DNA of 61,456 nucleotides, the filler included. It is 15 parts of 15 records of this genome, joined end to end, with 100 filler letters (N's around TTAATTAATTAA, not from the genome) between each part and the next. Parts side by side here need not be neighbours in the genome. Positions count along the whole stretch, not along the records: positions 9,960 to 13,306 come from SRR7504441_33953; 14 more parts are not named here. One strand, given 5' to 3'. The translations under genes were made by a program, and so were the position numbers. Positions 1-32,169 of the stretch are shown one piece after another. The notes below the pieces were generated by a model. It made no database searches. It saw only the letters and a program-made list of their open reading frames with translations, and was not told the DNA's origin. How positions within the stretch are numbered: the first letter of the stretch is position 1; the number at the start of each line of letters is the position of its first letter.

Positions 1-284
1 AGCTCACGCTTGTTTGGCATTGGGCTTGCCACTGGCTTGACTCCATTTGGCACTGCATCCGCCAAGAACTCTCTCACTATTCCCAATGGCCCTTGACCAT
101 CTTCGCGAATTCCTCGAGTCTATCTAGCCTTGACAGCTTGTCATACTCTTCAAACGCTTAATTAAACAGTTAACTGCTGGTGTCCGATCTGTTGGCCCCA
201 AAAGCCATCCCCTTTAAATATGCAATTTGAATTCAATCAATCGGATTCAATAACGTAAACTCGAATCTTTGACTATCCGATTAA

Positions 285-3032
285 TTAAATGTCAACATCG
301 TCTGAATTTTCCATGGCCAAAAGCTCGAGCGGCGCCGCCCTGGCATCAAGCCTGGCATTAGCCCTGACATCCTCGACCTCCCAGCCTGGCTGTAGGTGCG
401 CACTCGGGTCATAGTCCTCAAGGTCATCCAGCGAGATGATCCCAGCCCCCTCGTAGTGGTCAAACCCATCATTGGTGCCCAATATTGTCAGCGTATCCCC
501 GTCGCGTACATTCGATTCATACAGCGTCGCGCGCCCCTCTTCCAGCCGCACGCCATCACACGACAGCGCTACATCTCCACATAGCCTCGGCATCCAATCC
601 AGTGGTTCAAGCTGCTCCCAGAGCTCAGCAACCGTCCCAAATATCCGGGCTTGGATGCTGTGCATAGCTGGGTGATGCTGGCGCGGCTGGACCCACAGCT
701 GCACGTTCAACTCTCCCATCAGTAGGTCACCGATAAGCTCCAGCCACCTGCCGACCAGGTGATCATGCCACACAGTATAAATGAGCCACGCACCCATCAT
801 ATGTGACTGGTCCTTCGCCTTTGAGCCTGTGGGCCCTCCTGAGCATCTCGTCAAGCCCAGCAGCTTGCGGGTGCAGGGCTGCCACTATCTGTACCGCAGC
901 GCCGAGCAAGTCAGGCCATATGTGTCCAGTGCCCTTCCTGTCAAAGATCTGGAACAGGCACCGAACATAAAAGCTTGGGCTGCAGATGAGCAGGAACTGT
1001 CGCCAAGAGCACGGTCTCCTATCTGGGACGGCCAGCCGCATAGCATCTATTATCTCTGAACATCGCCAGGCTTCGGCCACGGCACCCAAGCCAGTGTCAA
1101 GCCCGGGAGCTAAGATAAGCTCCACGTCCAGCTCTCGCACAACATCAAAGCACCTGATTCACACAACTTGCTAATGCCATGGCCAAGCCAGAGCACTCCC
1201 GGAGCGCGCACAAAGCGTTACAGCTGGTGCAGAACACACGTTCCTGCGATATGCCCAATTTGGCTTCTTTAAAGATGGACATCAACTGCCAACAAGCTCA
1301 CTGCGGTCAACGAGGTGCGCCCACCTGTGTGACAGATCGCAAAGTATCTCCAAGATTCCAACGAGAGCTCACCCTCTCACACAACCTGGCGATCTAGCCT
1401 GCCTTGCTCAGCCTGGCTGAGCATTCACCTGTCTATGTCACCAACAGGCGCGCCAGCTGACTTGGTGAGCATAGTCTGGTAATACGCTTGCAAGTCAGCC
1501 AGCCGAACCTGGTGCCGGCTTCACACCGCTGGCTGTGACCGCATACCCTAGACTGCTCCAGTTCGAACACCGTTTGCTCCCGCGCTTCCATGAACGTGGC
1601 TCTGAGCAGTGGATGCAACACTGCGGTCGCACTCTGCCTCCTCTCCTTCTCAATCCCATCGCCAACAGTGACCAGCCTATGCTTCTCCTCCCACTTGGAC
1701 ATCGCCTGAGTCGAAAACCTGAGCCCTGATCCAGTTGGCATCCCACCTGATACAGTTCGCTGAAGCTGATAGAGCCGGAGAAGTCCTCGTCGACCTGCTC
1801 TAGCAGCTGATCCGGGCTTGAATAGCTCGGGATGAAGTCAAACCACTCGCGAGCTGCACGCCGTGTGTGACAGCCCAACCCACACCAGGGCACCAGAGAT
1901 TGGTGACGTACTATTGTAGTTATGATGTACTAGAGCAACCTACTCAAGCTGCAACTCACCGGTCATGAGTAGATCTGCAAACCCCTCGTACGGTATCCCT
2001 CCAGTAGTTTCATCTGTATAGTGCTAGAACACTCGATTTCAGAATTTTCTCCCATGCGAACTGACCTTGTATAGGTCTTTAACTTGAGCAAACATCGTTC
2101 GACCATCTGACGCAGGAGGCGCCAAATGCCTCCTCTGCCAAGCAGGCTTTTCGTATTCGCGGCATTTGGCCGTTAGCGCGAGCGACTGTCGGCCCAGTCA
2201 GCCCCGGCAGGCGTGTTGTAGACCTGAAGGAAACAGTACCAGGAGACTTGGTCAACCCTATCCGGGGCCTGTGCGTGTTGTCAGTCTAAGCCGCTACCCG
2301 CCCGACGGCTGCCTGCAACAGCCACTCCGACTTCTGACTTCCTTCTGCTGTGCTACAAAAGCCGAAACAGCCTGGCCGGCCAGAATTGATGGTGGCTGCT
2401 TATCTCTGGTGGTCACCAGCGGGGGTGGCGAGCGGTCGGTGCTCGTTGAAGCATATGTGCTCTTTGATCATAACCTAACCCAGCTCGACGCAGACCACCT
2501 CGGATCTGACCACATGGAAGGCATACTCGAGCATTTGTTCGATCTTATACACCTCCGCGCCTGCTGCGGTCACCACACCGCCTCGGGCCCTGGACACCTT
2601 TCAGACAGATGACGTCGATCAACGACGCCGAGGGCTCACTGCTCCCAAACAGGAACGCAAAGTGTCCCCGCACGCACAGATGCACCCGCACCTGCCCCAA
2701 CTCGCTTCCCCCCCACTACATGGGCACCCAGAAAGAAAACCAATTGAGCCGCTTCAGGTCTGCTTGCCTGCGCTCACGCCCGTGAGCCGCGAAGCAGAGT
2801 ATGCGGGGGGTGCCGGTCGTAGTGCCGGCCCATGAGGTACTCCTTCTCGAAATCGGCCTTCTTCTGCCCGATCTGCGCCCAGGCTAGGCCCCGCGGCGGT
2901 GCTCAGGCCCACTTTGCCGAGGAGTCGCTCAAATTTGGACGCGTGCTCTGTCCCCACCGTCTGCCCTCGGGGCAGGCAGCAGGCACTCAGGTTGGAGATC
3001 GAGCACGGATTGGCCATGTGCGCTATCTCCAT
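285..3032 (-). CDS. Multi-exon protein with PH-like N-terminus, several EF-hands and a C-terminal ubiquitin-like domain
   Basis: Joining minus-strand exons across ~25-45 nt introns gives LKRLNWFSFWVRVHLCVRGHFAFLF...IDVICLKGAEVYKIEQMLEYAFHVV (PH-like), QVDEDFSGSISFSEL and FQIFDRKGTGHIW (EF-hands), and TVAELWEQLE...VRLEEGRATLYESNVRDGDTLTIL (Ubl). Exon model and start are tentative. Confidence 0.55.
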
Positions 3033-3134
3033 TGCTGCGGTGCCCCCGAACAGCCCGCCACCTGGAACCTATGGCATTGCGTGAATGGGTTTTATCCTCC
3101 GTGGACGTCGACGTGGCTACAGATCTATACCAAA

Positions 3135-3234
3135 NNNNNNNNNNNNNNNNNNNNNNNNNNNNNNNNNNNNNNNNNNNNTTAATTAATTAANNNNNNNNNN
3201 NNNNNNNNNNNNNNNNNNNNNNNNNNNNNNNNNN
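3135..3234. other. Artificial contig linker N44-TTAATTAATTAA-N44 (first of 14)
   Basis: Same 100-nt spacer at 3135-3234, 6515-6614, 9860-9959, 13307-13406, 16574-16673, 21859-21958, 24983-25082, 30685-30784, 34605-34704, 38797-38896, 43309-43408, 47930-48029, 51588-51687 and 57766-57865. The core has stops in all six frames. Confidence 0.98.
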
Positions 3235-6200
3235 ATTCTGGATACTCCGGATCGATCGAAGCCCTGCAGTTTCAAAGCTTTGCTGGCGTGACACCAGCAG
3301 ATCTGCGGGGGCCAGTTGTGGATGCCGAGTCACTGCTGGGGCTATGCAGATTTGCCACAACCCTCATTGACAGCCTCGACGACCCATCTGTACTAAAGGC
3401 ATGGCTGCTGGGGGCCATCAGTATTGCAGGCCACAGCGCTGAAAAGAAGCCTATCATCACCATTTGTGCTGCCCAGGTTAGAGAAGATGACGAGACGATC
3501 ATCGATGCCTGTGCCAATGTTGTTCGGGCATGCGTTGAGAAGCACCCTCACCTGGCAGAAAGTATCGCCGAGGCCAGGGACTCGAGAGGGCGGTCTTGCT
3601 ATGATATTGCTACGCCGCAATGCCGCACTGCTCTGAACAAGGTTTTGTTGTTCGTGGGAAAATATCGTTTGAAACAGCCCCCCGAGCACCAATCACAGAC
3701 TTCTACCGTCTTTTTGGCCGAAGAGGTCATCGATGAAGCTGCTAAGATCACCCGTCGTGTGGCCATAAAGTTTTTTTCTCGGCAGCAGGAATTCGACAGA
3801 GAAGTACAAGCGAGACTGCAGCACGGAAGCGGGCAGCCCAAGAAGTTGTCAGCTGAGTTCGTAATCTCGGTCGATTCAAGCTTCAATGCTGATTCGAGGC
3901 TTCCTGATGGGCGATCGTTCAGAGCCGAAGCATCGAGCAGATCCCTGCCGCCCTTCGCGATTATCATGCCGGCAGGAGAAAGGAACTTGTTGGTGTCGAG
4001 GGCACAGGATCGGATGAGCGTTGATGAGATGATACAGACAATGATATCACTCGGTAAAGCACTGGCGCACGTACACTCTCAAGGCATAATCCACGGGGAT
4101 TTCAAGCCTTTGAATGCCCTTAGATGCTCTGCGACAAAACGTTGGAAACTGATCGATTTCGACGCCAGTGCTGCAATCGGCTCCAGCGTGGCATCAAAAT
4201 TTAGTGAAGCGTATATCGCACCCGAGTTTATGCGCGCTCTGCTACCCCAGCGTACTGATGGAAGACCGTTACTACACGATGATGGCACAATTGATGGAGG
4301 TTGCATAGAAGCCACTGTCGTACTCGATATCTGGGCGTTTGGTGTCGTCATGTTCGAGCTTTTGACTGGTCACGATCTTTTTCCAAAGGAAGTCAGGGAC
4401 GACACGTTGAGATCGGCGACTCAATGTGAAAAGCTGGCCTCGTGGACGGAACCTTCAGGTGCACAGCTGAGTTTGATTTTAAAGGGCACGGACGCCCCGT
4501 CTAGGATGAAGATCGCGGCCCAAGATCTCGTTGCCCTCTGCCTGCAGGTGTGCTTCGTATCCCATTTTGTGATGTGATTGGTGCCTGTTGTTGCCAGGGC
4601 GAGCCGACAGCCCGACCCCAGTCAATGGCCGAGATCTTAGACCACTGTTTTATGACGATGGAAGATGCCTTTCCTGAGCCGCTCGGGCGTCCACTTTCTT
4701 CGTCTAAAGGAGCCAATGTTATTCTCAGTTACACCACTAGGGATATCTCAGCGATGTGGCGCATCAAGCGAACACTGAGATCACTTGGGGTTACAACAGC
4801 GGACGGCACTGAGGTCTCTCTTAGAGTTGTGTGCAGAAGCGAGTGCTCATTGTTCGGCAGGTGCCACCTGGTGCTGATTGGCGCGCATGGTATTTCAAGC
4901 AGCTGGAAGCAGCCAGTGTGTTTCTCATTATATACAGTCCGAGGTACCTACAATCGGCAGCATGCTACGAAGAGGCACGGGCGGCTCATTCGTGGGGAAT
5001 GCCAATCGTTTGCTGCCATGTTGATGACCCTGAGGATGTTGCGGGCACACTTTTGAAAAACGTAAATTTCAACAAGGCCTCGCCCGAAATGTCCCCGTAC
5101 AAAGATTGGCCCAGCTGTACTCGCCGACAAGAATGGACCGGTACCCTATCAACGGTCATGCGCACAATTCCTGAGGCAACGGGCGACTTTGGTGCGAGCT
5201 TTCCTCAGAACATCTCCATTTTGGTTGCTGCAATTCAAGCTGCGGTGCCACCCTCATCTACTATCCATGCGTCCCTCGTATCTGCTGAGGCGGATCGTGC
5301 ATTTGCTGAGATCCTGCGGGATGAGCTCATTGCCAAGGGGTTCAACATCAGAACAAGTGGTTTGACCGAACCGGAGCAAACAGAGCCTCCAGTGCAAATT
5401 CTCATATTGTCAGGATCGTTTCTGGTGGAGCGCTCGTGTCTTCAAGAGTTGAGATCTGGGTACGAAGCAGGCTCATCTGTGCTACCTGTTCTACACGATA
5501 AGTCATCATTTGAGGATATCTTGATGCATTGTACGGACCAGGAAGTCTCGGGATCTTCCGAACTGGCTTACAGCTTGCCATTCATCTCCAGTATCCTGAA
5601 TCGTGCCAATCGCATTCCCGCCCGCGAAAACTTTAACACAGACCATCACCTACATGTGCTCACATGCGCTTTACAGGGCTTGCTTTTCCTAGATCGAAGT
5701 GAAGCTGCAGTGCTCGCGAGACGCGTTCCCAAGTTGTATTCATTGATCAACAAGGTTATTCCACCAACAACCAACTTTTCCGTGGACTCACGCCATGACG
5801 TTTCGCAGCTGCTTCGAGCGATTCTACCGGATGCTCCTCACTTGGAGTCGTGTTTAGGAACGAGCACCCCCCACTCTATTTCTGGAGCTCCAGCCGAACA
5901 TGGCGAGAGTGAACGACCAGAGCGAGTGGTATTTTGCACAGCTGGCGGAGCCGAAGCAGAAGTCCTCACCGCCCGGATGGAGCTCGAGATGGAGAGATGC
6001 CGCATTCAAGTAGCTAAAGTTGGGCATGGAGATCTGCGTTGGTGGTCTGAGTGCGATCATTCTAGCCATGTCGTTGTGCTCCTGTCTGGAGATTTTGTTG
6101 CGTCAGGCTCAGCTGAGAGTCAGTTGACGTATGCCAAGGATACTGGCCGCAAGATTGTTTACGTGATGCACGATGTCGAGAGCTTTGGGCAGCTGATGGC

Positions 6201-6387
6201 TGCATCGACCCAAATTGTAGCGAAGCCTCGTGTTGACGATGACGATTTGCTCGAAGCCGTTGGCCAGCACCAGCTGATACGATCAATGTCTGCTCAAGAG
6301 CGTGATGTCTTGCGCCAAGCAGCTGAGATGAAAATAACTGAAGAGGAATTAGACATGATAATCATCCGGCGCAACTCAAGTATATAG
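3235..6387 (+). CDS. Protein kinase followed by three TIR-like domains (5' partial)
   Basis: Kinase motifs VAIK, HGDFKPLN, LIDFD, YIAPE, DIWAFG. GT-AG introns 4548-4597 and 4814-4860 join ORFs 3288, 4550 and 4831. TIR-like segments VILSY...VFLIIYSPRYLQSAACYEE, ILILSGSFLVERSCLQEL and VVVLLSGDFVASGSAESQL. Confidence 0.8.
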
Positions 6388-6692
6388 GTAAACCTTTGAT
6401 CAGAGTATACATTACTGTAGCACCATGCTAATTAGACCCTAATATTAAACGCACGGGAGCGGCCGCTATAATTATGCCGACCTCGGGCCCTCATCTCCGG
6501 TGGGATCCTTTTTTNNNNNNNNNNNNNNNNNNNNNNNNNNNNNNNNNNNNNNNNNNNNTTAATTAATTAANNNNNNNNNNNNNNNNNNNNNNNNNNNNNN
6601 NNNNNNNNNNNNNNCGCAAGACTGAGCTGCTGAGACATCAACTGGAGCTGTTCAGGCCGAATGGCGGTGCGACCACGCAGCTGCGCCGTGGA

Positions 6693-9600
6693 TTGGGTAA
6701 TTCTGTACCCGAGCCGGAGCTGAGCTCGATGGAGTATGCGAACGAACCAGTGAGCAACTTTGAGGATAACAGCATTGAGACTACGCTTGGTCAAATGAGA
6801 CAACAGACGGGGCAGAACAGGTCAAATGGGACTCTCCGCAGCGTCGTGGACCGGTTCGTGGCCAGTGATACGCCGGCAGATTTCAAGTCAGAGTTTTCCC
6901 CGGCGAAGATCGCAGCGGAAGGACCCGATGAGCACAGAGTTGTGAATTACTCGGCCGATGAGGTGCAGACCACCACCGATAGGATCATGAACGCGGTGGG
7001 AGGGTTCTCGAAACAGAGTGTCGACAACGGTCCTTATTTTAAAGGCCCGAAGCACAGTGTGGGCAGCAATCCGTGGTTCAGAGGCTTGAACGCTGCTCGT
7101 GACAAGATGGCTGTCGCTGCGGGAGTATTCAGCGATCACGGCAAGATGGGCAATGGGCAGCCAAGCGAGTTGGCAACAGAAGTTGACGCGCCTATTGATG
7201 CAGCAGGGGAGTATTGTAGTACTGGTGCGATCAGTACACCCTTCAGGGAGTCTGAGGAAGGGCACATCCGTCCGAATGTGTTGACTGATGTGGATCCAAT
7301 TGTGGACGCCTGTAAACTTTCTTTCGACGACATCCAGGAACTACAGGAGGCTCTCGATCTGTTGTCGACTGGAGTGAGTCAAGCGACGGGCAGCGTGCGA
7401 CCCTTGTTAGGTATGGCGGTGGGACCGACCCACAAGAGAGATGCTCTTATTTCAGTTGACGAGGTGAAGACTCAACTTGCTTTTGTGGCCACCGTAGTGG
7501 ATCGTATTGTGCGCAAGTTCGACAAGATCCAAACTTTGGAAACGACAATTACTAGCCTAAAAGCCACAGTTCAGATGCTGGGACACAACATGGTGAATCT
7601 ATCCCGGGGAGAGCGCGAAGCAGATGCTGCGGCTCAGTCAGAGGCGTACACCTGTATTCAGGGGTCTCTAGGCGAGCTTAAAGCAGCTGTTGCACTGCTT
7701 GGGGATAACGTTGTGAGGGATCCAGTTACCCTGGACACCCCAGTATTTCAGCTGTTCAGGGTTGTTAGCGAGTTGCAAGACAGCATGCGATCGAGGTCTA
7801 GTGACACAGCAGCCATTCGCCGCTCAGTGGATAAAGTCACTGCTGCTGCCAATTCTGCGTGGTTCAATATCAGCAGAGCAATTGGTAAAGACGAACCTGC
7901 ATCTGACGAGGCGTATCTCTTACGGACATCTTTAAGTGACTTGGAGTCTGCTGCATCTCATGTGCACGACATGGTAGAGTCTTGTGACTGTCGATCTGCT
8001 GGGAATCAACTTGCTTGTGCCAGTGTAGCAAAGCTCCGCAAGTCAATGCATCGTCTGGACGACTCTCTTGAGAATGCCTGGTTTAATGCAAAGCGGCTGT
8101 TACCAAGCAGTGCCAAAAAGGCAGGCGTGTTCCTACAAGACACGAAGTTCTACTTTGATCGAATGCACAACTCAATATGCGACCTCGATGTAGCATTTAA
8201 AGGTGCTGGCGACAGGCTTCTCAAGCTCTTCAAAACCCGAATCCCTGCTGGTGACCGCCTTGCTGCGTCTGTAAATGATCTGTCCGTCGCCCTTGCTAGA
8301 GTAAAACACAGTGCCACACAATCATTAGGTGGCGAGACCAAGGTGAAGTCGCTGATCTCGGCCTGCGATCCCCAGCATTACCACAAAGTGGGTCAAGCCA
8401 TTGAGATAATTGTGACTTCACTAGGAAGTCTTGAAGCTAATCTCACAAACTTTTGCACCAGTTCTCCGGGAAAACGAGACAGCAAATGGTTCAGAGGATC
8501 CGATCCGATATCCTGCTTGCAGTTGGACTTTGAGAAGTTGGCCGATGCTATTGGCGTCGCCTGGGATAGTATGATCAAGGCTACTACTCAGCATAGACAA
8601 GCAGCCCCACTCCATCAAGAGACCGATCCCCACGCAGTTTATGCTCTCAGCGCCGACATCGATCAACTTAGGCAGTCGTTAGACCAATTTAGCGACAATC
8701 TTTTTCATGCAACAGAAGGCGAAGGTCGCCGTTTGAAGATAAGTATCGAAAATCTTAGTGGCGTGATCCGCAAGACTGGCCACGGACTCATCTCAATGCT
8801 GGGAGGGCACAGTCGGCCACGGACAAGTTCTAACTTTGAGCGCAAGGAGTCAAACGGACTCAATCGGACTTGGAGCTATGAGACTGTTCGTAATGAGCCT
8901 GACGATCCTGCCTCTGAAAACACAGGTCTTGAGCATGAGGAGTCATCCACATCACCACAGGGACTCACTCGAACTATCACGCAAAGTTGGATGATTCAAA
9001 ATGAGCATGGCGGTCCTTCTACCAAGAGCAGCCAATCCTGGTTTCGAGGCGCTGTGAAGAAATCCTGGTTTCAAGGCTCGGTGATGTCTACTAATACCGC
9101 TACAGGCAGTGATGCTGCTCAGGCTAGAGAGATTCCATCACAGGGAGTAGATCGATCCAAAGATGGTCAGAGCAGCGACAGCAGGGTGATGAAGCTGGCT
9201 CCTCCTTTCGAGGGTAACCTTGAAACAAAACTCGCGCAATTGGAGGCACGGAAGGCTGAGCTTGTAGCTGCAAAGGACTTCCGGAGTGCGGCAGCAGTCA
9301 AGCAACAGATCAAAGCCTTGAAGGAACGCGAGGAGCAGAACCAAAGCCTGAGAGCGTCAGACGCTGTGAACGATGCCGAGCTTGCTGCGCCTGTCTCAGC
9401 TGAGCGGCTAGGGCAGCTCATTATGCAACTAGGGCAAGTCTGTGATGCAGGTCAAGCCAAGATGCGCCAGGTACTTGGCGATCCCATGTACTTTGCACTG
9501 GCTGCTTACCGATCAAAGCAGTCCCGCGATGCTGGGCTAGATTGTTCTGAGTTCTGGGGCGAGTTCTGGACTCATATCATTGTAGACATTGGAATGAACA

Positions 9601-9859
9601 AGTGTGCTCAATTAATCGAGAGCATGCTAAATGACACCCAGGCCAAGTGGGAAGCTAGCACCGCGGGAAAGGCCCGCGAACAGTTTCTTTGTGACATGGC
9701 CGACTATTATACCTGTTTCCCAGGCAGTTTGGCTGGCAACGTGCATCTTGAAGAGCTGCAGAAGGTCTGGGGTGAATGGAGCGGCCCTCTACTTAAGAAA
9801 CTTGATTTGGATATGGATGGCAATGTTGGACCAGAAGAGTGGCTTCATTTCTGGGACGA
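6693..9859 (+). CDS. Large helical/coiled-coil protein with UVR-like motif and C-terminal EF-hand (3' partial)
   Basis: >1000-codon intronless ORF. LAQLEARKAELVAAKDFRSAAAVKQQIKAL is UVR-like (~9230-9320); LDLDMDGNVGPEEW is an EF-hand. Start uncertain (first ATG at 6729). Confidence 0.7.
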
Positions 9860-10150
9860 NNNNNNNNNNNNNNNNNNNNNNNNNNNNNNNNNNNNNNNNN
9901 NNNTTAATTAATTAANNNNNNNNNNNNNNNNNNNNNNNNNNNNNNNNNNNNNNNNNNNNAGTCGAGTGGGTCAGCCCCACCACATAACAAATGTTACTTA
10001 GTCTTTATCTTGGTGTAGAATCACAGTACAAGTTTGTAGTCTAATTAATATCTAGAGTCACTAAGAGTCACACATTAGTATACTGTAACCTCGAATTAAC
10101 ATAATTCATTATTCTAAACGTATTGAAATGACATTATCTTTGTGGCTATC

Positions 10151-13100
10151 TTATCGGGTGGGTGGTTTTGGGCTCACACTACCTTTCACTACATTAATGC
10201 GGTCGACGAGCTCGCTAAGGATTCCAGACAGATTTGAGCTCGGTAAGGCAGCCGCTCCCTGAAAGCGCTGAACATGAAACTTGAGCTGACCAGTGCAACG
10301 ATCATACCCGACCCAATCGTGCCCTCCGCTCGCGACCTTTCTCTTTAGATTGTGCCTATGGTTCCTAAATTCTTCCCGCGAAAGTGGGAGGTTAGGCTGA
10401 GTAGGGAGCATCAACTCAGCTGTGACCAAGCACTTGCAATCAAGGGCTGGCAGCTCAACAGGATCCAGTCGCACTCCTCCGCGAACAATCTGAACCCTCT
10501 CGCAATCAACGCTTCTTAGGTCCACGGGTTCCTCCCAAGCAACGCTGCCAAAGCCTTCACGTGTGATGCTGAAGTTGTTCACAGCTTGCAGTTCTTCTTG
10601 CGTCATGCCCTGCAATTGTTGAAGTGGCGGAGAATAGGTGTATTCCCGCCCCCGGATCTGCTTGGTGAGCATCACTTCTTGCGGTAACAACTGGACTGTC
10701 TGCTGTGACGATGCGTTCATTATCAAGTGCACGTTGTCCCCACTGATGGAGGTACCACTGATGCTCATCGGCAGACCTTGAAGTGGGAGGGGCATGGGTT
10801 GTGCAGTTGGCAGCTGCAGGCTTGGGCTATTCTGAATCGCCCTGACTGATTGGACAATGTTGATGTGACTAGGTGCAACCCGATGTTGCAATGTCAATGC
10901 ACTTGTCGTCACTGCAACCAGTCCGGACGCCAGCCCAGTGTGACCCAAATTTGCCTTATGTCCCACTAAAACGAGTGGCCCCGCTGCCAGCTCAGTGACA
11001 GAGACCAGAGCCATGAGCTCGGGTATGTCAGTGGAGGGATTACCCATGCCATGCGGATGCGCTACCCTGACACCCTCGGCTGCAGGTGGACTGCCCGCCA
11101 TCGAAAGTGCGCTCTCGGCAGCGCTTGCCATTTTCTCAGGGTCAGCAAACCCCACGGGGAGGAGGGCACTGGTACGGTTTGCTGCCCAACCAATCAGACA
11201 ACCGTCCGTCTTCGTTTGACCCAATATTAATGCACAACATGCTTCGGAGAGTATTGTTCCGTCAGCCTGTGAGTCAAAGGGCCGTATCAAGCCAGCCATA
11301 TCTTTAGGTTCAAGTGCCATCGAACGCGAGAAGGGGATCAGGTTTGAGCTAGTGACAATTGCGTGGCCACAGTGGCCAATATTATCAAGTGCCCGGTGCA
11401 CCGCCAAGTATCCACTGGCACATGCTCCAGAATCGATATTGGCGATAGGACCGTCAACGCCCAATTGAGATGCTATTACCCGTGCAACAGCCCATTGCTG
11501 CAGCATCACGTCGTTTTCGGTGCTAACTGCACAAAACACGCCGCTTCCCTGCGGTGCGCCCTCTAGTTTCGCATCCACAAGACTTGCACAACAACAATCT
11601 AGTAGCAGACAAATGTCCTCGTGGATGGGGTCTTGAGCCTCAGAATTCCACATGATCTCGTGTTTATACACCTTAAGGTCGAGAACAAAACCAGCTGCAA
11701 TTAACTGTATCTGCTGATGCTTTGGCTGGCGTGCTTTTCGGTCAGATGACAATCGCGGCTCGATGCAGTTTGCACCCGTGCATAACGCGTGCCACAGTTG
11801 ATGTGGCATTTCTATGCGCCCTGGAAGTCGGCATGCTTGGCCAAGAAGCTGAACACCCGAGACAGCCTTTCTTGCAGACCTTACAGCATCAGGGATACCG
11901 ATTGTTGGAGTATCTGGTTCTTTAACATGAGCCAGCGTCAGGGGGCTGAAGAAGCAGTCACGAGTTTTACTTGTCTCTTGCTGGGCATGTATAAATTGAG
12001 CTATTGCTTGAGCCGTGGGGTAATCGAATGCCAGCCTGCTTGGCAGTTTGGTGGCCCTGCCTAGCTCGCTCTGGAGCAAGCTTCTGAGTTCAGTGGCTGC
12101 AAGCGAGTCTACTCCACTCTCCACTAAGGAATCGTGCATCACGACTGGCGCTCCTGCAACTTCCTGCACCTTCTGCAGCACCATTTCCTCCACTGCTTCT
12201 AAGGACCGCTGGCTGTCGGGGCTGCCTGTAGCTGCCGTAGGGTGAGCTGAAGCAACCCTGTGGGCAGCGAAACTGGTAAACACTGGTATGAGGTCGAGCT
12301 CTCCATTCTCAGCCAAAGTCAGCTCAAAGCTCCTCAGTTCGCTGTTCTTTAACTGGAGGCTAGTTGAATGCTCTGGCTGAACTGCTGATGATTTTCTTGA
12401 TCCCAATAAGCTTCTTAGGAGCTCGCCATGACTGACGACGAGTACCTCAGACTCCGGACGTGCCATTATCCACTCTAGCGCGCAAGTTCCTCTTCTAAGC
12501 AGTGATCCTGCCGGCTCCAGCTGATCTGCCATCCATAGCTCATCTTTCTCGGTTTGCAACTCCGAAAAGTCCCATTCGCTGAATGTTCTGGCCAGCTCAG
12601 TGCGCGGCCTCCGCTTTGAGTGCAGCAAAATTCCCGAAATCTCGCGCAGCCAGTCAAGCGACACCCGTACAGCATGTGCCGGAAGCAAGATATTTGCGGT
12701 CTGGATTGTCCTAGACAACGACGAGGCAACCACAAGATCCACACCAGCCAGCAGGTCGGCATGCAACATACGAGTCTGGGCTGCCTGCTCTCGGCCTTGC
12801 TCAGTCAGCTCTGCGTCGAAACAATCGTCGTCGGCGATGAGGTGAAGATCCTGATCCTTGGCATTCTCAAAACGCACATTGTGCGCTGCTTGCGCATGCC
12901 GCACAAAATGCACCAGCTTTCGGCGCTTAGTGACGTTTGGTTCAGTAGTGCGGCCCCCTGTAGCAAAGTCTGCCAGGAACTGCGGTGCCTCGTTCTCGCC
13001 ATGCTCCATTCGCATCAACAGCACTGGCCACTTCGCAGGCACCATTCCCACCACGCCTGCGTTCAGATTGAGCTCGAGAGCACGGAATCCTAAATCTTCG

Positions 13101-13306
13101 GTGATTGGGGTCAGGCCTTGCGCCTCCAGCCGTTCCACCACGCCTGAGCTCACTGCCATACCAACTCCTGCCCAAGCACCCCATTGTACGCTGCAGCTTG
13201 GTAATCCCTGGGCCTGCCGCAGCCTCGCTAGCCCGTCTAGGCACGCATTGGCTGCAGCATAGTTAGCCTGACCTGCATTGCCCAATAGTGTCGCTACTGA
13301 TGAGAA
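10151..13306 (-). CDS. Type I polyketide synthase fragment: KR, histidine phosphatase, ACP, KS, Nup98-like peptidase S59 domain (5' partial)
   Basis: [22 protein letters not shown]...SVQWGAW. His-phosphatase: [35 protein letters not shown]...[52 protein letters not shown]-terminus: [10 protein letters not shown]...[20 protein letters not shown]...[15 protein letters not shown]. Confidence 0.88.
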
Positions 13307-13406
13307 NNNNNNNNNNNNNNNNNNNNNNNNNNNNNNNNNNNNNNNNNNNNTTAATTAATTAANNNNNNNNNNNNNNNNNNNNNNNNNNNNNNNNNNNNNN
13401 NNNNNN

Positions 13407-13942
13407 CCTGGTGCCTGAGGAGGAAGCGAGATAGGGTGAAGCCAGAGAGCAGCTACCAAGTTGATAGTGAGTCGGGTCAGCCCATCCAGGATATGGTTGG
13501 CAGCCGGAAGGTTTGGCCCAGGTCACAGTCACGAGACCCCAGTCCAGCTCCAAGGACATCACATGTCCGGCAGGGACAAAGGCCACCAAGGAAGCTAAAA
13601 CCTCTGGATCGTGCTATCAGGGAGCAACAGCTTCCAGGCGAGGTTTCACCGATGCAAGGGCTTGATCGAAATGCTGTCACTGAGATTGAGATGGCATCAG
13701 TGTTGGCTGTTGATGTAGACCCGCCAGCACCCCCTTTACCCCCTGATGATGCTCCACCACCGGCACCTCCCACCGAGCTTCCACCTGCACCCCCAATAGA
13801 CGACCCCCCCGCCAATAGTATGTACTTCAGGGGTGCAACGCAAAAAGAGGCAGTGGTTTCTAGGCTTGAGTCGATCCTACAAGCCATAGAAAGCGAGATG
13901 GCCGGTAATAGCTCACTTGAGACGGATCCCGAGAGGGGTTAG
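13407..13942 (+). CDS. Proline-rich hypothetical protein, C-terminal part
   Basis: Open frame from the contig edge with PPAPP repeats, ending at TAG 13940-13942. Confidence 0.55.
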
Positions 13943-14184
13943 GACCAGATAGCATTGCCCGACTGTCGACGATTTAGATAGCTCGCACTCCGAAATAAAA
14001 GATGCCATAGCAAACGCAACGCCATCCAGCGTATTCTATCTATTGACTATTGCTTGCTGTACACACTCGCGGCCGTATAGTACAATCATAATTATTAGGT
14101 GAGAACCTCCACCATGAGCGCATTGTCGCGTGCACCGAGTCTCGCAACCATACCGATACAGCGCACGTAAGTATGGTGGGGCTC

Positions 14185-14734
14185 CTACGAGCATGGCGCA
14201 CTGCCAGGACTGGAGCTTGAGGCACTGCGCGGTCCCCCTCTCGGGCTGTGGCTCGGTGCTCTGCCCGGGCTGTCTTCAAGTAAGCTGACCGATCGCTGCC
14301 TGATCCGCTGGGCTCTTCTGATCAGGTTCTCCACTTCCCGCTGTCCGGGCGACCCGGGCGACCGGCTGGCAGCGAGCTCGGCGATCTGGCGGTCTTTGGC
14401 GGCTAGCTGCCGTTGCAGCGCGACTACCTGCAGCTCCAGCCCCTCCACCACCGGCGCCAGCCGCTCCAAAGCCTGCCCGAGCTCCGCGAGCCCGGGCTGA
14501 CTCGGGCCCGGGCTGCAGGCCGCAGGCTGCTGCGCCAGCTCGGCCGCGAGATGCTCCACCTGCACCCGGGGCTCTGCTCATGGGATTCAGACCGGCCACC
14601 TGCTCGGCAACGTCCATCTTGCCGTCACCGCGCAGCCGGCCGCCGAGCTGCTGCATCTCGGCGGCTAGTTTGCTCCGCCGCTGACCCCGCGCCCGGGCCG
14701 CGGCGGTGTTGACCGCGACCGGCGAGAGCACCAT
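14185..14734 (-). CDS. Small coiled-coil hypothetical protein
   Basis: ORFs 14276..14734 and 14185..14565 join via a ~40-nt GT-AG intron (DVAEQ|VEHLAAEL). Heptad-like LELQVVALQRQLAAKDRQIAEL. Confidence 0.55.
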
Positions 14735-14982
14735 CGGCGCAGCACCCCTTCCTTGCCCGTAAAAAACGAATCAAATAAAAATAATAATAGAAAACATACT
14801 GGTTCGTTGCTTCGCACACACGAGGACCAGCGCTGGACAAGGCATGTGTTGCCGCCCTGTGCCTGTGGCCTGTGGGATGGGTCATCTCGGGGCGGGGCCG
14901 GGGGAGGGCACCCCTGCATGCGAGCCGTGCCATACGAGCCCAGCGTGGCCCGCCACTGACCGCCGGCTGTGCAGGAAGCACA

Positions 14983-15562
14983 ATGTCAAAGAACATTCAG
15001 GGTCAGGTGCACCGCCGACCGCCGGGCCCATCGGCTGAGCCGCGGGGCAGGACTGGTCAACTCAGGGTTGGTCGAAGGACAACTCAGCAAACCGGGGCGG
15101 CAACAAAACCACCACCGTGGCCCGAGGTGGGGCGCACCCTGGCCGCAGTTGGGTTAAACGCTCCTGGGAACAGGAGGGCAAAGCAACGCCTCGCGTTCGG
15201 GGCAGGGCAACATGCACAAACTGGACGACGCGGACGAAGCGGGCAGACGTGAGTGCTGCCAGCCGGCGGAGCTGGCCAGGCTGACCCCAGCGCAGATGAG
15301 ACTGTGGGGGCTTCGATAAAAAAGCTGATCCAGCAAGGGCGGTTAGCCAAGAAGTGGTCTCAGGTGTGGGCCGGTGCCCGGGGAAGGGGGCGAGCTAGGG
15401 GGGTAGGCCCAGCTAGCAAAGGAGATCTGCGAGGCGCCAAAGGTTGTAAACGAGTACGAGTCAGGGAAAGCAATCCCAAACCAACAGATCCTGGCCAAAA
15501 TGGAAAGGAAGCTTGGGGTCAAGCTGCGCGGGGTGGACAAGAAGAAGAAGGGATCAAAGTAG
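14983..15562 (+). CDS. MBF1: Multiprotein bridging factor 1
   Basis: Removing introns 15007-15050, 15127-15173, 15249-15295 and 15364-15406 gives [10 protein letters not shown]...[78 protein letters not shown], the typical MBF1 HTH. Confidence 0.93.
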
Positions 15563-15823
15563 ACGGCGGTCAGTGACGAGGACCCGTTCGGTTTCCTCCT
15601 TGTAGTGGCATGTGCGATCACTGCTCGATATCCTGCTGAGAGCTAAAGTTGCGTGTACTCTACTTAATAAACCCCCGGGCGCGTAATCGCTGTGACAACC
15701 AGCTCTGGATTAAAGAAGGGTCCCATCCCACAAATCGTGTGTGTACATGAGATAATATGAGTGCTCGAGTCTCATTTAGCGCGCAGCTCAAATCGATAAC
15801 GGATCCATCGCACTCGGCTGGTC

Positions 15824-16573
15824 ATGAAGGTGAAGCGTGGGCGGCCGGCTCCAGGCTGACAGGGTTGGTGCTACCCATGACAGGTCTACATCTACTTCGA
15901 GGGCAAGCAGGTCATCAAGGCCACGCTCCCGAAGAAGTGGCTGACCGAAGAATGCTCAAAGATCATCGAGGCGAGCCGCACTGGCCCGGCGCCCGTGAAC
16001 CAGCCACAGATGTTTGCCGACCATTACGACAAGAAGAACCCCGGCGGGGAACTGGACCGCAGCAAGCTGCAGCTGACTGAGCTCAAGAGGTGCCGCCGCT
16101 GCCCGGGCGCCCCGGCTCACCCTGTCGACGCGCAGCGGCACGGTGCTCCCGTCGACTGGCCGTATCGAAGACCTGGTACACCCCCACGCGGACCTTCAGG
16201 TCATCGAGACGGAGGACGGTGCGCAGCGCGGGCCTCCGCGCACACTGATGCGCCCCTGTCTGCCTGCAGCCCCGGCCAACGCCTCGCAGAATCCGTGGGT
16301 GTCTGGAGGGCACGTCCCTGCAGCGGACAGGCCGGCCGCGCCAGCTGCAAAGACTGGCTTTGGTGAGACCTACAGCAAATGGGACAGGATGGAATTCAGG
16401 TGAGCCAGCCGTCGCTCGGCCGGTGCGGCTGACGGCTGTGGGCCAGTGACGATGAGAAGGACTTCCACCCCAACATCGACAACAACCTAATGATCCGGCT
16501 GAAGGTGTGTGGCTGGCCGTCCCCCGCTGAGTGGCTCGGGCGTGGCAGCGCGAGAAGCGGGCTCAGCGCAAGG
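15824..16573 (+). CDS. Protein with unknown N-terminal domain fused to a Cdc37 N-terminal-like motif (3' partial)
   Basis: Spliced: MKVYIYFEGKQVIKATLPKKWLTEECSKIIE...FADHYDKKNP... then YSKWDRMEFSDDEKDFHPNIDNNLMIRLK, matching the Cdc37 signature YSxWDxxExSDDExxxHPNID. Confidence 0.7.
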
Positions 16574-16874
16574 NNNNNNNNNNNNNNNNNNNNNNNNNNN
16601 NNNNNNNNNNNNNNNNNTTAATTAATTAANNNNNNNNNNNNNNNNNNNNNNNNNNNNNNNNNNNNNNNNNNNNCTCACGCAGGCCGAGTCGCTCATGCTG
16701 ACGGCAGCCACGCGAGCCTAGCTATTGACTGTGTATTCACCACCGCGCTCTACGCAGCACTGCCTCGTGTGTCCGGGCTGCCCACACCACCACTTGACAG
16801 CGTGTCAACCAACGTACACCTCGAGCTCGTTGACCAGCACTCATTTTAATTAACTGAGCAGCAGCAGCAGCTCG

Positions 16875-17855
16875 ATGGTACTCGCCGCGGCCGGTCGCGA
16901 CCAACGCAGGACCGTCCAGGCAGCCCGTCCGGAGGTGCCGGGCCCCATGGGGTCGCTCCCGCCAGCAGCCTCACCAACCCGACGGTCGCGTCGCGGGGAA
17001 AGGGAACGCCGCGGCCGCGCGAGTCAGTATAAAGCTGCCAGTGATGCTCGCCTTCTTGAGCAGCCAGCCGGCAACGGTCTGATCCAGGTCGCGCAGCTGG
17101 GGCTGCCGTGCGCTCAGTCCCAGCCAGCGGGGGGCGGGACCCTGCTCTCGAACGTGCGCTGCCACCTGGTGTACAGCTCGTCCGGCGGCTGCTTCTCCGC
17201 CTCGTCCACCCCCACCCAGATCCCCATGCACTGTCACTGACTGTCGGGGCCCTGCCGTTCCGTTGTGGGCCAATGTCTGCGGGGGAGCAGGGCCCGTCGC
17301 TGGCGCTGAAAGCGCTGTACATGAGCATCGCCACGCTGCTCACCTCGCTCTCCGGCTGTACCCCCGCGCCCTCTGGCAGGTCAGCTCACGGGGGGCAGAT
17401 GTATGGATTAGCCTGCGTGGGCTAGACCTGGAGCATCGGGCGATCCTGGCTATGGTCAGCCTGGGCAGCGCGCTGATCATAAGCGTGGCGTATCATTCTG
17501 TAGCGTTCCAAACCAACATACGGTCAGGCGCATCCCTGCGCTCAGAACTCGGGGCAGGCTGTCGCGCAAACAGGCCAGACAACGCAATAAGCTGGGCTGC
17601 CAGCTGCGAGAGCTGGTCACACTGCACTGGCGGCAGCTGCTGCTCACTCGGCGGATCCAGGTGCGCCAAAATCAGCTGGAGCAGTACTCTGTGGCCTTCT
17701 CAATCTTCTACAATAATTGCTTCTTCCTTTTCTGTGTGATGTTCATGAGCTTCTTCGTCTTTGAGCAAACGAATCCTCCATTTGGTTACATAATTTCAGT
17801 GGCTGGCTCGGCTTTCATTGTGCTATATCACTCGATCCCACGCCAACAAAGCTAA
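16875..17855 (+). CDS. Multi-pass membrane protein (possible DMT/NIPA-like transporter)
   Basis: Several hydrophobic exons (ALYMSIATLLTSL; AILAMVSLGSALIISVAY; VAFSIFYNNCFFLFCVMFMSFFVF; YIISVAGSAFIVLY) separated by short introns. Family call is weak. Confidence 0.4.
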
Positions 17856-17985
17856 ATGGTTGTGCTCAATTAATATTAAAGTGTTTCGCTTTTACTTACG
17901 AGAACTCCAGAGTAAATTAATAGTCGGCCATGAGCTCAAAGGAACTAAATTACTTAGGAGCAAGCCACAAGGCCGTCCAGGTCGG

Positions 17986-19537
17986 CTATCTAGTGCTGTT
18001 AGTGAGGCCCGCGCTCTCGGCTTCGGTGCTCATTGCCCTGGCCCTGGTGTTACATGGGCTGTCTGGTCCGAATGGCTTATACTCGCTCTCAATAGTTGTT
18101 GATCTGCTCCTCGGGTTCATCGGCGAGTCTGGCCCAAACGGCTTGAAGTCCTCCGGTAGCTCAAATGGGTCCTCTTGCGTTGCGGTGCTTACAGCTCCGG
18201 GATTAACAGGCTCAACCTCGGGCGTGCCGGGATCAAACGGCGAGTCATCACCGAATACACTGTGCGCGTCTACAGTTGTCCTTATAGGAGTGACTAGCTG
18301 CTGCTCACAGCTGGTTTGGCTCGCTGGCAGCGGCGCTGGCTGAGCCTCGTCAAACAGGTTTTCAGCCCAGCCCTGGTTCGGACTACTGGACGTGACTGGC
18401 GCCGGCTCCAGCCCGGCAATACCTGGGTCTTGCCCGGCAAGCACTGCAAGCAGCCCGTCGCACACCACTCCTATCTGGGGCCGCCCGGCCGGCTCCTCGC
18501 GCAGCATCCCCAGCAGCGCCGCCCGGGTGGTCATGCTGACCGCTGGCTCTTTGGGCAGCTCGGCACGGCCTGCGCTGGCTCCGTGGCCGCCGCTAGAGCA
18601 GGCACCTCGGATCAGGGCGTCGATCTGGTTATCGCTGGCCTGGAAGAGCAGCTGGAGCAGGAGCACCCCAAGCGCCCACAGGTCCACAGGCAGCCCAAGC
18701 AGCACAGGGAACTGCCAGAGGTCCTTCTGCTCAGGCGCACGGTACTGCGGCGTGGTCATCCGCTCAATGTCCTCCTGCGCATCCGGCACATCCTCCTGCC
18801 CGGCCGCTCGGCGCAGGCAGGCCGCAGCCCACCTTGCAGGCAACTGTGCGCACACCGATCTGGCAGCTGCCAAAGTCACCCACCACCCAGCTGCCTGACT
18901 CCAGCTCGAAAAAGTTGGTCGGCTTGAGGTCCCGGTGGCACACTGCACCGCCGGCTCGGCCCGCCAACCCTGCTCGGCACACCGGAGTGCTCGTGCAGAT
19001 GCCGCACCCCCGCGCACACCTGTCGGGCGGTCAGCCCAGCTGGCTGCCAGCCGGTGCCTGGCAGAATATCTGGAGCACCGCGCTCTCGCTCCGCTGCTCG
19101 ACCGGCCGCATCTGCTGGTTCATCACCTGCACCGGCTGGCAGCCAGCTGGGCCCGGGCTGGCGCCTCGAGCAGCGATCCTGGACGGCAGAGCGGCATGAG
19201 CATGAGCAACTCATGCTGCCCGTCGGCGGCCGGCCTGCTGGCCCACTCGAGCAGCCGCATGGTGTGCGGGTGCTCCCCGACCATCTCCATCAGCCGGGGC
19301 TCGGCCTCTGCCTCCGACAGCCTCTCGCTGGCCACCGTGGCCTTCTTGAGCGCCAGCTTCTCCTTTGTGACGCAATCGACCACTGGCCCGGGCTCGGCCT
19401 GCCCTGGGGAGTGGCCGCTCACCCTGGTGCACCGTGGCGAACGATCCCTCCCCGAGGAATCTTGTGATCCGGACCCGGCGCTCGCCCAGCCGGCACACCC
19501 CGCGACTGCTCCGCGGGCTGAGAGCAACATTCCCCAT
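17986..19537 (-). CDS. Ser/Thr kinase, NAK (AAK1/GAK/STK16)-like
   Basis: Spliced motifs FLGEGSFATV, ALKK, CHRDLKPTN, GDFGS, ERMTTPQYRAPE, VDLWALG. Tail has DPF/SPF/KPF motifs. Needs GC-AG introns 19127-19164 and 19020-19057. Confidence 0.85.
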
Positions 19538-19624
19538 GGATTTGATCGAGCTCTAGATCTTCCGTTACTATTCCCCGGTCAGCGGGTCGCAGCTGGTGGG
19601 GCACGCTGCTGGTCACAGCACAGG

Positions 19625-20305
19625 ATGGGCCAGTGCATGACCACACCGGCGGAGCGGCAGCTGGCGGCCGACCTGCGCCGGGTGCGGGAGGCCAAGGCGG
19701 CGGATGCAGCCCGGGATGCCGAGCTGCAGGCTGCCCGTCAGGCGGCGGCCGAGCAGTCAGTCAAGACCAAGCGCCGCCAGCTGGAGCAGCGGCGGCAGCA
19801 GACCCAGGCGGCGGCCCGCAGCCAGGTCCAAGGGCTGGACGTGCTGCAGGCTGCCCGGGCGGGCGAGTTGGGCACCATCCAGCTGGTGCTCTCCCATGCG
19901 CCGGACCGGCTGGAGCAGACCGACGCCGATGGGTGCACCCCGCTGCTCGAAGCGGCCCGCAACGGGCACCCGGAGGTGGTGCGCGTGCTGCTCGAGGCCA
20001 AGGCCGACCCGAACCGGGCCGACAATTGGGAGCGGAGCCCGGTGCTGCTGGCAGCCTCCAACGGCAACCTGCCCTCGCTGCAGGCTCTGGTAGCTCGGTC
20101 GGCTGATGTGCGGCGGGCGGACAAAAACGGCTGCTCTCCGCTGTGGATGGCAGCCTCGCACGGGCACAAGCTGGCGGTGGAGCTTTTGCTGGAGGCGCGG
20201 GCGGATCCGACCCGGCCGGACAAGTTTGGGTTCACCCCAATGGCTCAGGCCGGCAAGCGTCAACACTGGGAGGTAACCGAGCTGCTCCGCACGCACGGGG
20301 CATAG
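19625..20305 (+). CDS. Ankyrin-repeat protein with putative N-acylation motif (MGQC)
   Basis: GCTPLLEAARNGHPEVVRVLLEAKAD, SPVLLAASNGN and GCSPLWMAASHGH repeats. Confidence 0.9.
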   Translation: MGQCMTTPAERQLAADLRRVREAKAADAARDAELQAARQAAAEQSVKTKRRQLEQRRQQTQAAARSQVQGLDVLQAARAGELGTIQLVLSHAPDRLEQTDADGCTPLLEAARNGHPEVVRVLLEAKADPNRADNWERSPVLLAASNGNLPSLQALVARSADVRRADKNGCSPLWMAASHGHKLAVELLLEARADPTRPDKFGFTPMAQAGKRQHWEVTELLRTHGA

Positions 20306-20537
20306 TACTATAGGTGACTTCGCGCCTTTGGAACCGACCGCGACGATGACATCATATATCATTGAACAGTAAGCTAAATACTCATGAATTAGTATCATGA
20401 CTCTCATTAATTTTACATGGTTGTACGCACTCAAAGGATTATACGTACACGTTGTCAATCGGTCTACAGTATGATTGATCTATGATTATGCTCTTCTTTC
20501 TACGTACGTACTCGTATTCTATTATCTACGGAGACTT

Positions 20538-21701
20538 CTACGTACAACACTGACGAGAGTCGGCGGGCTCATTTGAAATTTGCTCGTCGCTACAGGGCTG
20601 ATCTTGATCGGGCTTAATCTTGGTTGACTCGATGACTGGCTTCTTGTGCCGACTGGTGTTGGTGCTGGTGTCATAGTCCATCAGCTGCTCGCCCGGCCTG
20701 CGGACAGCCGACAGGCACAGCGCCAGTCCGCTCCGCAGCCAGTCGAGCTTGCCGCTGCTGGGCAACGTTTGGACCGAATGCGGCACAAGGAACGAGTTGA
20801 CCGAGACCGAATCTATCGAGCCCATCGCTGCGTGCAGCGCGTACGCCGGGATGCAGAGCGCGTCGCCCGGCCCGAGGTCGGCCACAAACAGCTCGGCCGT
20901 GGCGCACTCCGGCTGCTCCGAGAGCACCTCAGGAAACCTGAAACCGTAGCCCAACCGGCAGTGGTTGGGCACCGCGGTGTCGAACACTGAATAGAGCGGG
21001 AACTTTGAGGTCTCGCTAGCCGGGAACACCCAGACGCGCTTGGCGCCCTCGAGCTGGAAGAGCACGTTATCGAGCGAGTCCTGGTGGAGGTCCGGGGCCG
21101 AAGGGCCGAGCCAGAGCATGTTGATCGCCTCCTCCCACTGGTCGAGCAGCTCCGGCATCGGGAACTGCTCGGCCAGCCCGTCCAGCTTCATCAGATTCTC
21201 ATGCGCGTACAGCGGCTTGCCGGTGTGCGCTCCCATCACGGTACCACACAGCTTTAGCACTGCCTCCCGGTCCCCGATCTCCACCCCGAACCCAGGCTGC
21301 CCGTCCTGCCATCGGTGCTCCTCCTGCGCCGCCCGCATGTTGGCCAGCAGGTCCGAGATCGGCACCCTGAGCCGCCCGCTCAGCCCTGAGCCCCGCAGCA
21401 GCAGCACGCACCGGCTACCGTACTTTTGGCTCAGGTCCCCAAACCGCTCAATCACGTGCGGAGTGCGGACTGCCACCGACATTGTCTGGGCCCCGAGCCG
21501 CTCCTCCAAGTAGGCCCGGTCCCAGCCCGGCAGCTCCGGCAGCGCGAACTTGCCCGGATAGCCGGCCTTGAAACTGGCCCGAATCAGCTCCGGCGAGGCC
21601 TCGGGCCACACAGTGACCGGCTCGGCCGGCCGGAACCCAGCAGCCGGCCTGCTCCCTGGATCATGCCCACTGCCTTCGGCCCGTGAGGCCTCGCAGCCCA
21701 T
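20538..21701 (-). CDS. JmjC/cupin-8 2-oxoglutarate-dependent oxygenase
   Basis: LWLGP...LHQDSLDNVLFQLEGAKRVWVFP...LGPGDALCIPAYALHA (HxD...H triad). Start MGC; C-terminal CCT. Confidence 0.85.
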   Translation of the reverse strand: MGCEASRAEGSGHDPGSRPAAGFRPAEPVTVWPEASPELIRASFKAGYPGKFALPELPGWDRAYLEERLGAQTMSVAVRTPHVIERFGDLSQKYGSRCVLLLRGSGLSGRLRVPISDLLANMRAAQEEHRWQDGQPGFGVEIGDREAVLKLCGTVMGAHTGKPLYAHENLMKLDGLAEQFPMPELLDQWEEAINMLWLGPSAPDLHQDSLDNVLFQLEGAKRVWVFPASETSKFPLYSVFDTAVPNHCRLGYGFRFPEVLSEQPECATAELFVADLGPGDALCIPAYALHAAMGSIDSVSVNSFLVPHSVQTLPSSGKLDWLRSGLALCLSAVRRPGEQLMDYDTSTNTSRHKKPVIESTKIKPDQDQPCSDEQISNEPADSRQCCT

Positions 21702-24170: not shown

Positions 24171-24187
24171 CTGTGACAACGGAACAC

Positions 24188-26080: not shown

Positions 26081-26097
26081 CAAAGTCCGTTATTTCA

Positions 26098-32148: not shown

Positions 32149-32169
32149 TTCTTGAAGGCGTCTAGGCAG

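Follow-up and report, generated by a model that had tools for sequence, protein, structure and literature searches.

A predicted non-cleaving S59 domain of the Nup98 type at the C-terminus of a putative protist polyketide synthase

Why should a polyketide synthase (PKS) end in a domain that is known from the nuclear pore, and what could such a domain do there once its site of self-cleavage has been lost? This question is raised by a partial type I PKS open reading frame (ORF) on the minus strand of a DNA stretch of 61,456 nucleotides, in the following termed the window (positions 1..61456). The ORF occupies positions 10151..13306, with its stop codon at 10151..10153 and its 5' end open at the edge of the contig. 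Its product, here called the query, carries at its C-terminal end a Nup98/Nup145-type autopeptidase S59 domain (Nucleoporin2, 10262..10645, minus strand), and in the columns of the cleavage triplet His-Phe-Ser (HFS) it reads Arg-Phe-Gln (RFQ). The answer to which we give somewhat better than even chances is that a non-cleaving S59 pseudo-protease has been kept as the C-terminal protein-interaction module, for docking or anchoring, of a protist PKS subunit.

As far as sequence and structural model can tell, the C-terminal approximately 165 residues of the PKS are a genuine β-sandwich domain of the S59 (Nup98/Nup145N) type. A Pfam scan of the analysed translation (10151..13285, minus strand, 1044 residues) detected PF04096 at residues 881-1008 with E = 4.3e-16, covering positions 3-143 of the 148 in the profile, and with the last 226 residues alone the E-value was 1e-17 (65.1 bits against a cut-off of 28.4). 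When these sequences were compared with those of the PDB by phmmer, nucleoporins accounted for 19 of the 25 matches at E<=10 and for all of the top 17, Nup145 being the best (E = 0.001). The AlphaFold2 (AF2) model of the last 226 residues was built on an alignment of 50 related sequences; a single-sequence run had given a predicted local distance difference test value (pLDDT) of 35. The mean pLDDT of the model is 76.7, and in the S59 region (residues 61-190 of P0002) it amounts to 80-97 per block of ten residues, that is about 90. All 22 Foldseek matches of this model in the PDB at E<=0.001 are domains of Nup145N, Nup98 or Nup116, with target template modelling (TM) scores of 0.59-0.79. The best of them is 5cww_A (E = 3.2e-9, target TM 0.77, root mean square deviation (rmsd) 2.5 Å over 140 columns), and the first match after the 22 nucleoporin domains has an E-value of 0.067. 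S59 clusters also ranked first, with a score of 0.94, in a language-model feature search of a protein atlas. A homodimer prediction of the S59 domain together with its tail scored 0.00 in two runs, which were made without controls and speak neither for nor against a dimer.

The original prediction, that the PKS ends in a Nup98-type fold, is borne out by both the profile and the structural match to S59/Nucleoporin2, each of which is significant. The peptides quoted in its support occur in the minus-strand translation, with YTYSPP starting at residue 882 (window position 10642). The label “PKS” holds for the polypeptide, but what lies behind it is merely a contig fragment of 3.3 kb within a stitched window.

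For the analysis of the cleavage site the query was aligned by hmmalign with 128 S59 domains of relatives, picked from 166 domain rows (154 proteins) as spanning the model from position 10 or earlier to position 128 or later. The triplet columns of these 128 relatives read HFS 62 times and HFT five times; HF followed by the end occurs in 12, gaps in seven and assorted degenerate triplets in 42. The RFQ of the query (residues 1007-1009; 10259..10267, minus strand) falls in the same columns, just as it had first been read, and it is unique among the 129 aligned rows. For Nup189 of Schizosaccharomyces pombe, a published study gives HFS as the cleavage site and reports that the exchange S965A within it abolishes cleavage (PMC4483485). 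Since His is replaced by Arg and Ser by Gln in the query, leaving it without a Ser/Thr nucleophile, canonical self-cleavage by an N-O acyl shift is not expected. We infer from the alignment, and by analogy to the yeast protein, that the S59 domain of the query is non-cleaving.

The domain sits at the extreme C-terminus of the PKS, where 36 residues (QGAAALPSS...PKPPTR; 10154..10261, minus strand) lie between the Phe of the triplet and the stop codon. A contig from an RNA run (X7 record 19) follows the window colinearly over this tail, the stop and the adjoining 3' flank (10122-10275). It is one of the contigs by which two RNA libraries cover positions 10122-10521 and 10320-10701, and this coverage is no proof of transcription.

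Is the combination of a ketosynthase (KS) and an S59 domain found beyond this one contig? An exhaustive phmmer search of 1.84 billion representative sequences, started from the last 226 residues, yielded 233 proteins at E<=0.001. The top match, P0003, a fragment of 124 residues, shares 96% identity with the query. Behind it rank P0004-P0009 and P0011-P0015 (E from 1e-25 to 2e-12), which are S59 copies without a nucleoporin partner domain; P0010 ranks among the best relatives and is a multi-stretch match without PF04096. Nucleoporin partners (Nup96, FG, GLEBS) and strong full-length S59 matches appear from P0016 and P0020 downward, and the first match to be placed with the nucleoporins in the trees described below has an E-value of 5e-10. 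A Pfam scan of the best 38 of the 233 relatives detected PF04096 in 37 of them, and in six (P0004, P0007, P0012, P0018, P0022 and P0023) a KS lies upstream. With the KS of the query, blastp against the whole set of 155 proteins recovered the same six KS-linked relatives, out of the 150 best representatives, and three cluster mates; for the 112 hits from P0041 to P0156, this blastp was the search made for a KS. The KS-linked S59 relatives are 27-45% identical to the query and come from marine catalogues, JGI/IMG, ENA and Logan.

The architecture of these proteins varies in front of the S59 domain. P0018 has the order KS-acyl carrier protein (ACP)-S59, P0154 (799 residues) the order ACP-KS-S59, and the linker between KS and S59 comprises approximately 20 residues in the query compared to approximately 200 in the relatives. 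The S59 domain was located at or near the protein end in every complete case, with the relatives ending 0-23 residues after HF. Because it follows the KS in the query and the ACP in P0018, the constant feature is the end of the polypeptide and not the catalytic neighbour. A further case is the metagenome locus L002, which reads KS_C-linker-S59 and was found, along with L001, when P0154 was used as query; with P0001 as query no relative was found in metagenome contigs. Word-indexed searches for homologues of the S59 region gave no match at 574-1827 residues and none at 1828-5000 residues, the latter being weak evidence, and it was the exhaustive phmmer search that found relatives.

The second locus, L001 (1..7115), is a multi-module PKS contig without S59. 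It contains an enoyl reductase-like part, the order ACP-ACP-KS-ACP-KS and more KS pieces, with frames that shift. The first KS shares 66% identity with that of P0154, but an ACP and the next KS follow there instead of an S59 domain.

The relationship of the S59 domains was analyzed in a quick tree that comprised all 129 rows and in a careful tree of 52 rows, namely 19 near rows including the query and 33 canonical ones from 30 proteins of our own choice, with 77 rows left out. In the quick tree the query is placed in a cluster of 18 rows together with 11 of the 12 rows labelled KS-linked (support of 83 in the Shimodaira-Hasegawa-like approximate likelihood ratio test, SH-aLRT), where the label of P0005, P0006, P0008 and P0153 rests on their being nearly identical to P0004/P0154 or on a KS-end motif and not on a KS Pfam match. 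In the careful tree a single branch with support 90/67 divides the query, eight KS-linked rows and five others from the remaining 38 rows, and in 96% of 200 bootstrap trees one change suffices to part the KS-linked rows from the canonical ones. The terminal branch of the query is long (1.07-1.32). Judging from these sequences, the S59 domain of the query belongs to a non-nucleoporin branch which has recurrently been attached behind a KS or KS-ACP at what appear to be the C-termini of protist PKSs.

The same branch also holds S59 domains without a KS on the sequence seen, namely P0009, P0011 (Telonema subtile transcriptome), P0013/P0156, P0014 and P0019, with the degenerate triplets QFN, QLK, QFL, NFN and HFE. 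The upstream regions of P0009, P0011, P0013 and P0019 are without a Pfam match, and P0014 is a fragment of 176 residues. In P0013 the S59 domain is flanked by two copies of a Cys-rich motif of approximately 50 residues, and a C-terminal AWRIMG motif is conserved in both P0009 and P0011. P0026, P0078, P0095 and P0128 have two S59 domains each. In P0015 we observed an insertion of 22 residues within the S59 domain (residues ~107-130), possibly a retained intron, and both P0006 and P0015 possess a second, truncated copy of the first ~30 S59 residues further upstream.

Within the PKS-linked group the cleavage motif occurs in three states. In the first, HFS is followed by a short conserved tail and then by the protein end. 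Counted from Ser these tails are 9- to 23-residue long and read SRVSTELHPN in P0004, P0008, P0153 and P0154, SKVSTELHPN in P0006, SRISIDLNKYETVGSNFSEVCHD in P0007 and SRLSVELQTR in P0015; the motif SR[VIL]S[TIV][ED]L is common to P0004, P0007 and P0015. In the second state a stop comes directly after HF, as in L002 (1215..1226, GAG CAT TTC TAG), and P0005 also ends at HF. The third state comprises degenerate ends: those of the query (RFQ and the 36-residue tail), P0012, P0018 (…LHSD) and P0022 (…LHSPSP…). By analogy to Nup98, the first two states would converge on a domain with a free …HF carboxyl terminus, which is the post-cleavage, binding-competent state. As PKS-linked relatives keep HFS or end exactly at HF, self-cleavage seems to be part of the story of this family.

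What could the domain then contribute to the query? With self-cleavage absent, the 36-residue tail would stay attached. The domain would probably act as a protein-binding module, like the S59 domains of nucleoporins after cleavage, and might dock the end of the subunit to a partner protein, for which the next PKS subunit or a scaffold is the most likely candidate. Alternatively, it might hold its own tail in cis, or bind through another surface. For the Nup98 domain, PMC11148069 describes cleavage in cis, followed by anchoring via the N-terminus of Nup96 or the β-propeller of Nup88. By this analogy a docking role of the query domain is plausible.

A wider proposal, which we regard as possible and put forward tentatively, is that marine protists borrowed the S59 autoprotease of the nuclear pore as a terminal maturation-and-docking device. 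HFS types would cut off their tail, types that stop after HF would represent the same end state, and RFQ types would be locked. Removal of the tail (SR[VIL]S[TIV][ED]L...) would expose the groove, which could then capture the next subunit or a scaffold, and the query would be a locked, non-cleaving variant whose tail is permanently bound in cis or whose partner has changed. If true, this would represent a PKS assembly system specific to eukaryotes and without a bacterial counterpart, as well as the first S59 autoprocessing outside of nucleoporins.

Several points weigh against a docking module in the query. The trees give moderate support for a KS-linked clade apart from the canonical nucleoporins. 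None of the contigs of runs X1, X2, X7 and X12 spans the junction between KS and S59 (10707-10766 uncovered), and the query's own junction therefore rests on the assembly of the window and on the architecture of the relatives. The tail was modelled at low confidence (pLDDT 43-64), so that binding in cis is without support from the model. According to PMC4483485, an uncleavable tail renders Nup98 of S. pombe non-functional, and for this reason such a tail may occupy the binding groove. By analogy, the permanent tail of 36 residues may speak against a trans mode of docking via a groove of the Nup96 type, and the result complicates a simple model in which the query copy binds a Nup96-like peptide. 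A GT at position 10183 (AAAG/GTAGTG; 10176..10190, minus strand), eight codons upstream of the stop, looks like a 5' splice site, and one contig from an RNA run is colinear through it; were it to serve as a splice donor, the true C-terminus would differ from the tail as read. Finally, no partner emerged from the window, which contains no second PKS or nucleoporin piece elsewhere.

Of the explanations that compete with a docking module, decay survives best, and we consider it unlikely. It assumes an ancestor with a self-cleaving S59 domain of the HFS type, whose motif has degenerated in the paralogue seen in the query and which is now left without a specific role. This would be in agreement with the HFS and conserved tail kept by the close clade members P0004, P0007 and P0015, with the degenerate ends of the query, P0012, P0018 and P0022, and with the long terminal branch of the query. 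A decaying domain would, however, hardly be expected to reach 65 bits over 141 of the 148 profile positions with a pLDDT around 90, or to be retained intact over 123 residues in P0003, which stems from another data set. Degenerate triplets, moreover, recur in several independent lineages that keep the fold, as is the case for the non-cleaving Nup116 (3pbp, 3nf5).

Less likely again is a tether for localisation, in which the S59 domain would bind a β-propeller similar to Nup82 or Nup88, or another scaffold, possibly at the nuclear pore, and not a PKS subunit. The structural matches do include Nup145N, Nup98 and Nup116 domains in complex with Nup82 or Nup88 propellers (5cww, 3tkn, 7mni, 3pbp). 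Proteins other than PKSs within the clade (P0009, P0011, P0013, P0019) carry S59 domains too, which suggests that S59 is a general-purpose module in this clade. Against a tether stands the separation of the query's clade from the S59 domains of nucleoporins, and for one at the nuclear pore, as the original prediction had offered, nothing was found in support.

We give a small chance to the idea that the C-terminal S59 domain serves dimerisation by stabilising the KS homodimer. KS domains act as dimers, and in the query no more than ~20 residues separate the S59 domain from the end of the KS. The linker of ~200 residues or the intervening ACP in the relatives would be ill-suited to a KS clamp, however, and the titles of the solved S59 structures among the Foldseek matches name heteromeric complexes or single domains.

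Non-canonical self-processing, at Phe-Gln or at another site, has a slighter chance still. The relatives evidently need the post-cleavage state, be it through HFS and a short tail or through a stop right after HF as in L002. The chemistry speaks against it, as the Gln in position +1 offers neither a hydroxyl nor a thiol group and His is replaced by Arg; in S. pombe, the exchange of Ser to Ala alone halts cleavage, as PMC4483485 reports.

An assembly chimera of a PKS gene fragment and a nucleoporin gene, as the short, low-coverage contigs of the window and the unbridged junction might suggest, is very unlikely and was rejected, since the fusion is recurrent (KS then S59 in six representative proteins, three cluster mates and L002, from several sources and at 27-45% identity) and the S59 domain of the query clusters with KS-linked copies and not with nucleoporins, in a frame that is continuous and free of FG repeats. 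A read-through into an adjacent nucleoporin gene was likewise rejected.

The remainder of the ORF, again in a single continuous frame, has the domain order ketoreductase (KR, end only)-histidine phosphatase-ACP-KS-S59, all on the minus strand. The C-terminal end of the KR lies at 13169..13285 (PF08659, E = 1e-11, residues 1-39, profile positions 141-179 of 180), the ACP (PP-binding) at 11990..12181 (PF00550, E = 2.3e-9, residues 369-432), and the N- and C-terminal halves of the KS at 10856..11851 (PF00109, residues 479-690; PF02801, residues 714-810). The end of the KS and the short linker to the S59 domain, as read from the translation, occupy 10646..10855 (AF2 pLDDT 49-67). A Cys and two His are the catalytic residues of KS domains. 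In the query all three match those of the KS of mycocerosic acid synthase (alignment to 5bp1_A, E = 3e-19), and from its sequence the KS looks catalytically intact. With KS, ACP and KR in one polypeptide and the Cys-His-His of the KS kept, the protein has the features of a modular type I PKS. A homologue search with residues 1-860 returned generic type I PKSs only, the best of which matched 39% of the query at 29% identity, and gave no taxonomic hint. The contigs of other runs differ from the ORF at 30 positions, of which 17 are third codon positions; 16 of the 30 variants are synonymous in the ORF frame, which indicates that this frame is under constraint.

Between KR and ACP lies a histidine phosphatase domain (branch 1; 12320..12910, minus strand; PF00300, E = 3e-15, residues 126-322), in which the RH and SHG-type His residues are visible. 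PF00300 is absent from all 120 PKS homologues listed, and a histidine phosphatase in line within a PKS is unusual.

The window itself consists of 15 short contigs of ~3-6 kb each, joined by 14 linkers of the form N44-TTAATTAATTAA-N44 at positions 3179, 6559, 9904, 13351, 16618, 21903, 25027, 30729, 34649, 38841, 43353, 47974, 51632 and 57810. Neighbours in the window therefore need not adjoin in the genome. The segment with the PKS-S59 ORF (9960..13306) is flanked by such linkers on both sides, and because this contig fragment has only 3.3 kb the N-terminal part of the synthase is outside the view. Pieces of the segment are also present in contigs of marine or aquatic metagenome runs, which contain at most 0.48 of the words sampled from it. 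Elsewhere in the window, segments encode pieces of Sec16, MYND, TIR, ankyrin, EF-hand, actin-family and ABC-transporter proteins, and the source is therefore a eukaryote. Among them are a TIR-domain protein (4831..6387, plus strand), a Sec16 homologue (32936..34648, minus strand) and an actin-family protein (57971..59239, plus strand).

To our knowledge little has been established about how marine protists divide their very large PKSs into subunits, arrange these and keep them together; we know of no evident counterpart of the bacterial docking domains in these enzymes, and of no treatment of the S59 autoprotease family other than as a domain of nucleoporins. In the open-access literature, supplements excluded, no paper was found that links a PKS with Nup98, S59 or the nucleoporin autopeptidase, while architecture databases may list the combination without comment. 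The S59 ends of these PKSs hint at a mode of completing or docking such enzymes that has so far gone undescribed. With S59 in cleavable, “pre-cleaved” and dead forms they offer a concrete and testable handle on the assembly of protist PKS subunits, and they broaden the range over which S59 autoproteases are known. The recruitment of a nuclear-pore autoprotease to the ends of protist PKS subunits would surprise specialists, with the query locus taken alone being a dead variant. If docking is true, an orthogonal docking pair for the engineering of synthases would be at hand.

How does the query compare to known systems? Like Nup98/Nup145N (MEROPS S59, PF04096) it matches the family profile, over 141 of the 148 positions, and it shares the fold of Nup145N from Chaetomium thermophilum with a target TM of 0.77-0.79 at an rmsd of about 2.5 Å over 140 columns. 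Unlike these proteins it is without His-Phe-Ser/Thr, without FG/GLFG repeats or GLEBS upstream and without Nup96 downstream; its S59 domain is attached to a ketosynthase and lies on a branch apart from the 33 canonical rows. Nup116 and Nup100 would be similar in that the S59 fold is kept purely for binding or targeting (3pbp, 3nf5 and 2aiv are among the structural matches). These two proteins end at the S59 domain, whereas the query has its 36-residue tail, and their partner is the propeller of Nup82 (title of 3pbp).

There is a likeness in architecture to the KS-linked relatives (P0004/P0154, P0007, P0012, P0018, P0022, P0023 and L002), which have a KS or KS-ACP and then a terminal S59 domain. 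They differ from the query in that P0004, P0154 and P0007 keep HFS and a tail, that L002 ends at HF, and in their longer linkers (~200 versus ~20 residues). Like the docking domains of bacterial modular PKSs, the query domain lies at the very C-terminal end of a PKS polypeptide and is proposed to connect subunits, but it has no relation to them in sequence or fold, and the Pfam scan of the query at E<=1 detected no docking-domain family. Bacterial docking domains are short terminal regions (abstract of PMC9113145). The spliced short Nup98 isoform from S. pombe nup189, with its tail of 33 residues, resembles the query and its HFS-type relatives in the succession of S59, short tail and stop; there, as PMC4483485 has it, the tail is autocleaved, which the query would be unable to do by that chemistry. 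Taken by analogy, the S59 domain of the query would come nearest in its mode of action to the non-cleaving Nup116/Nup100 type, or to the short, tailed isoform of Nup98 in a locked form.

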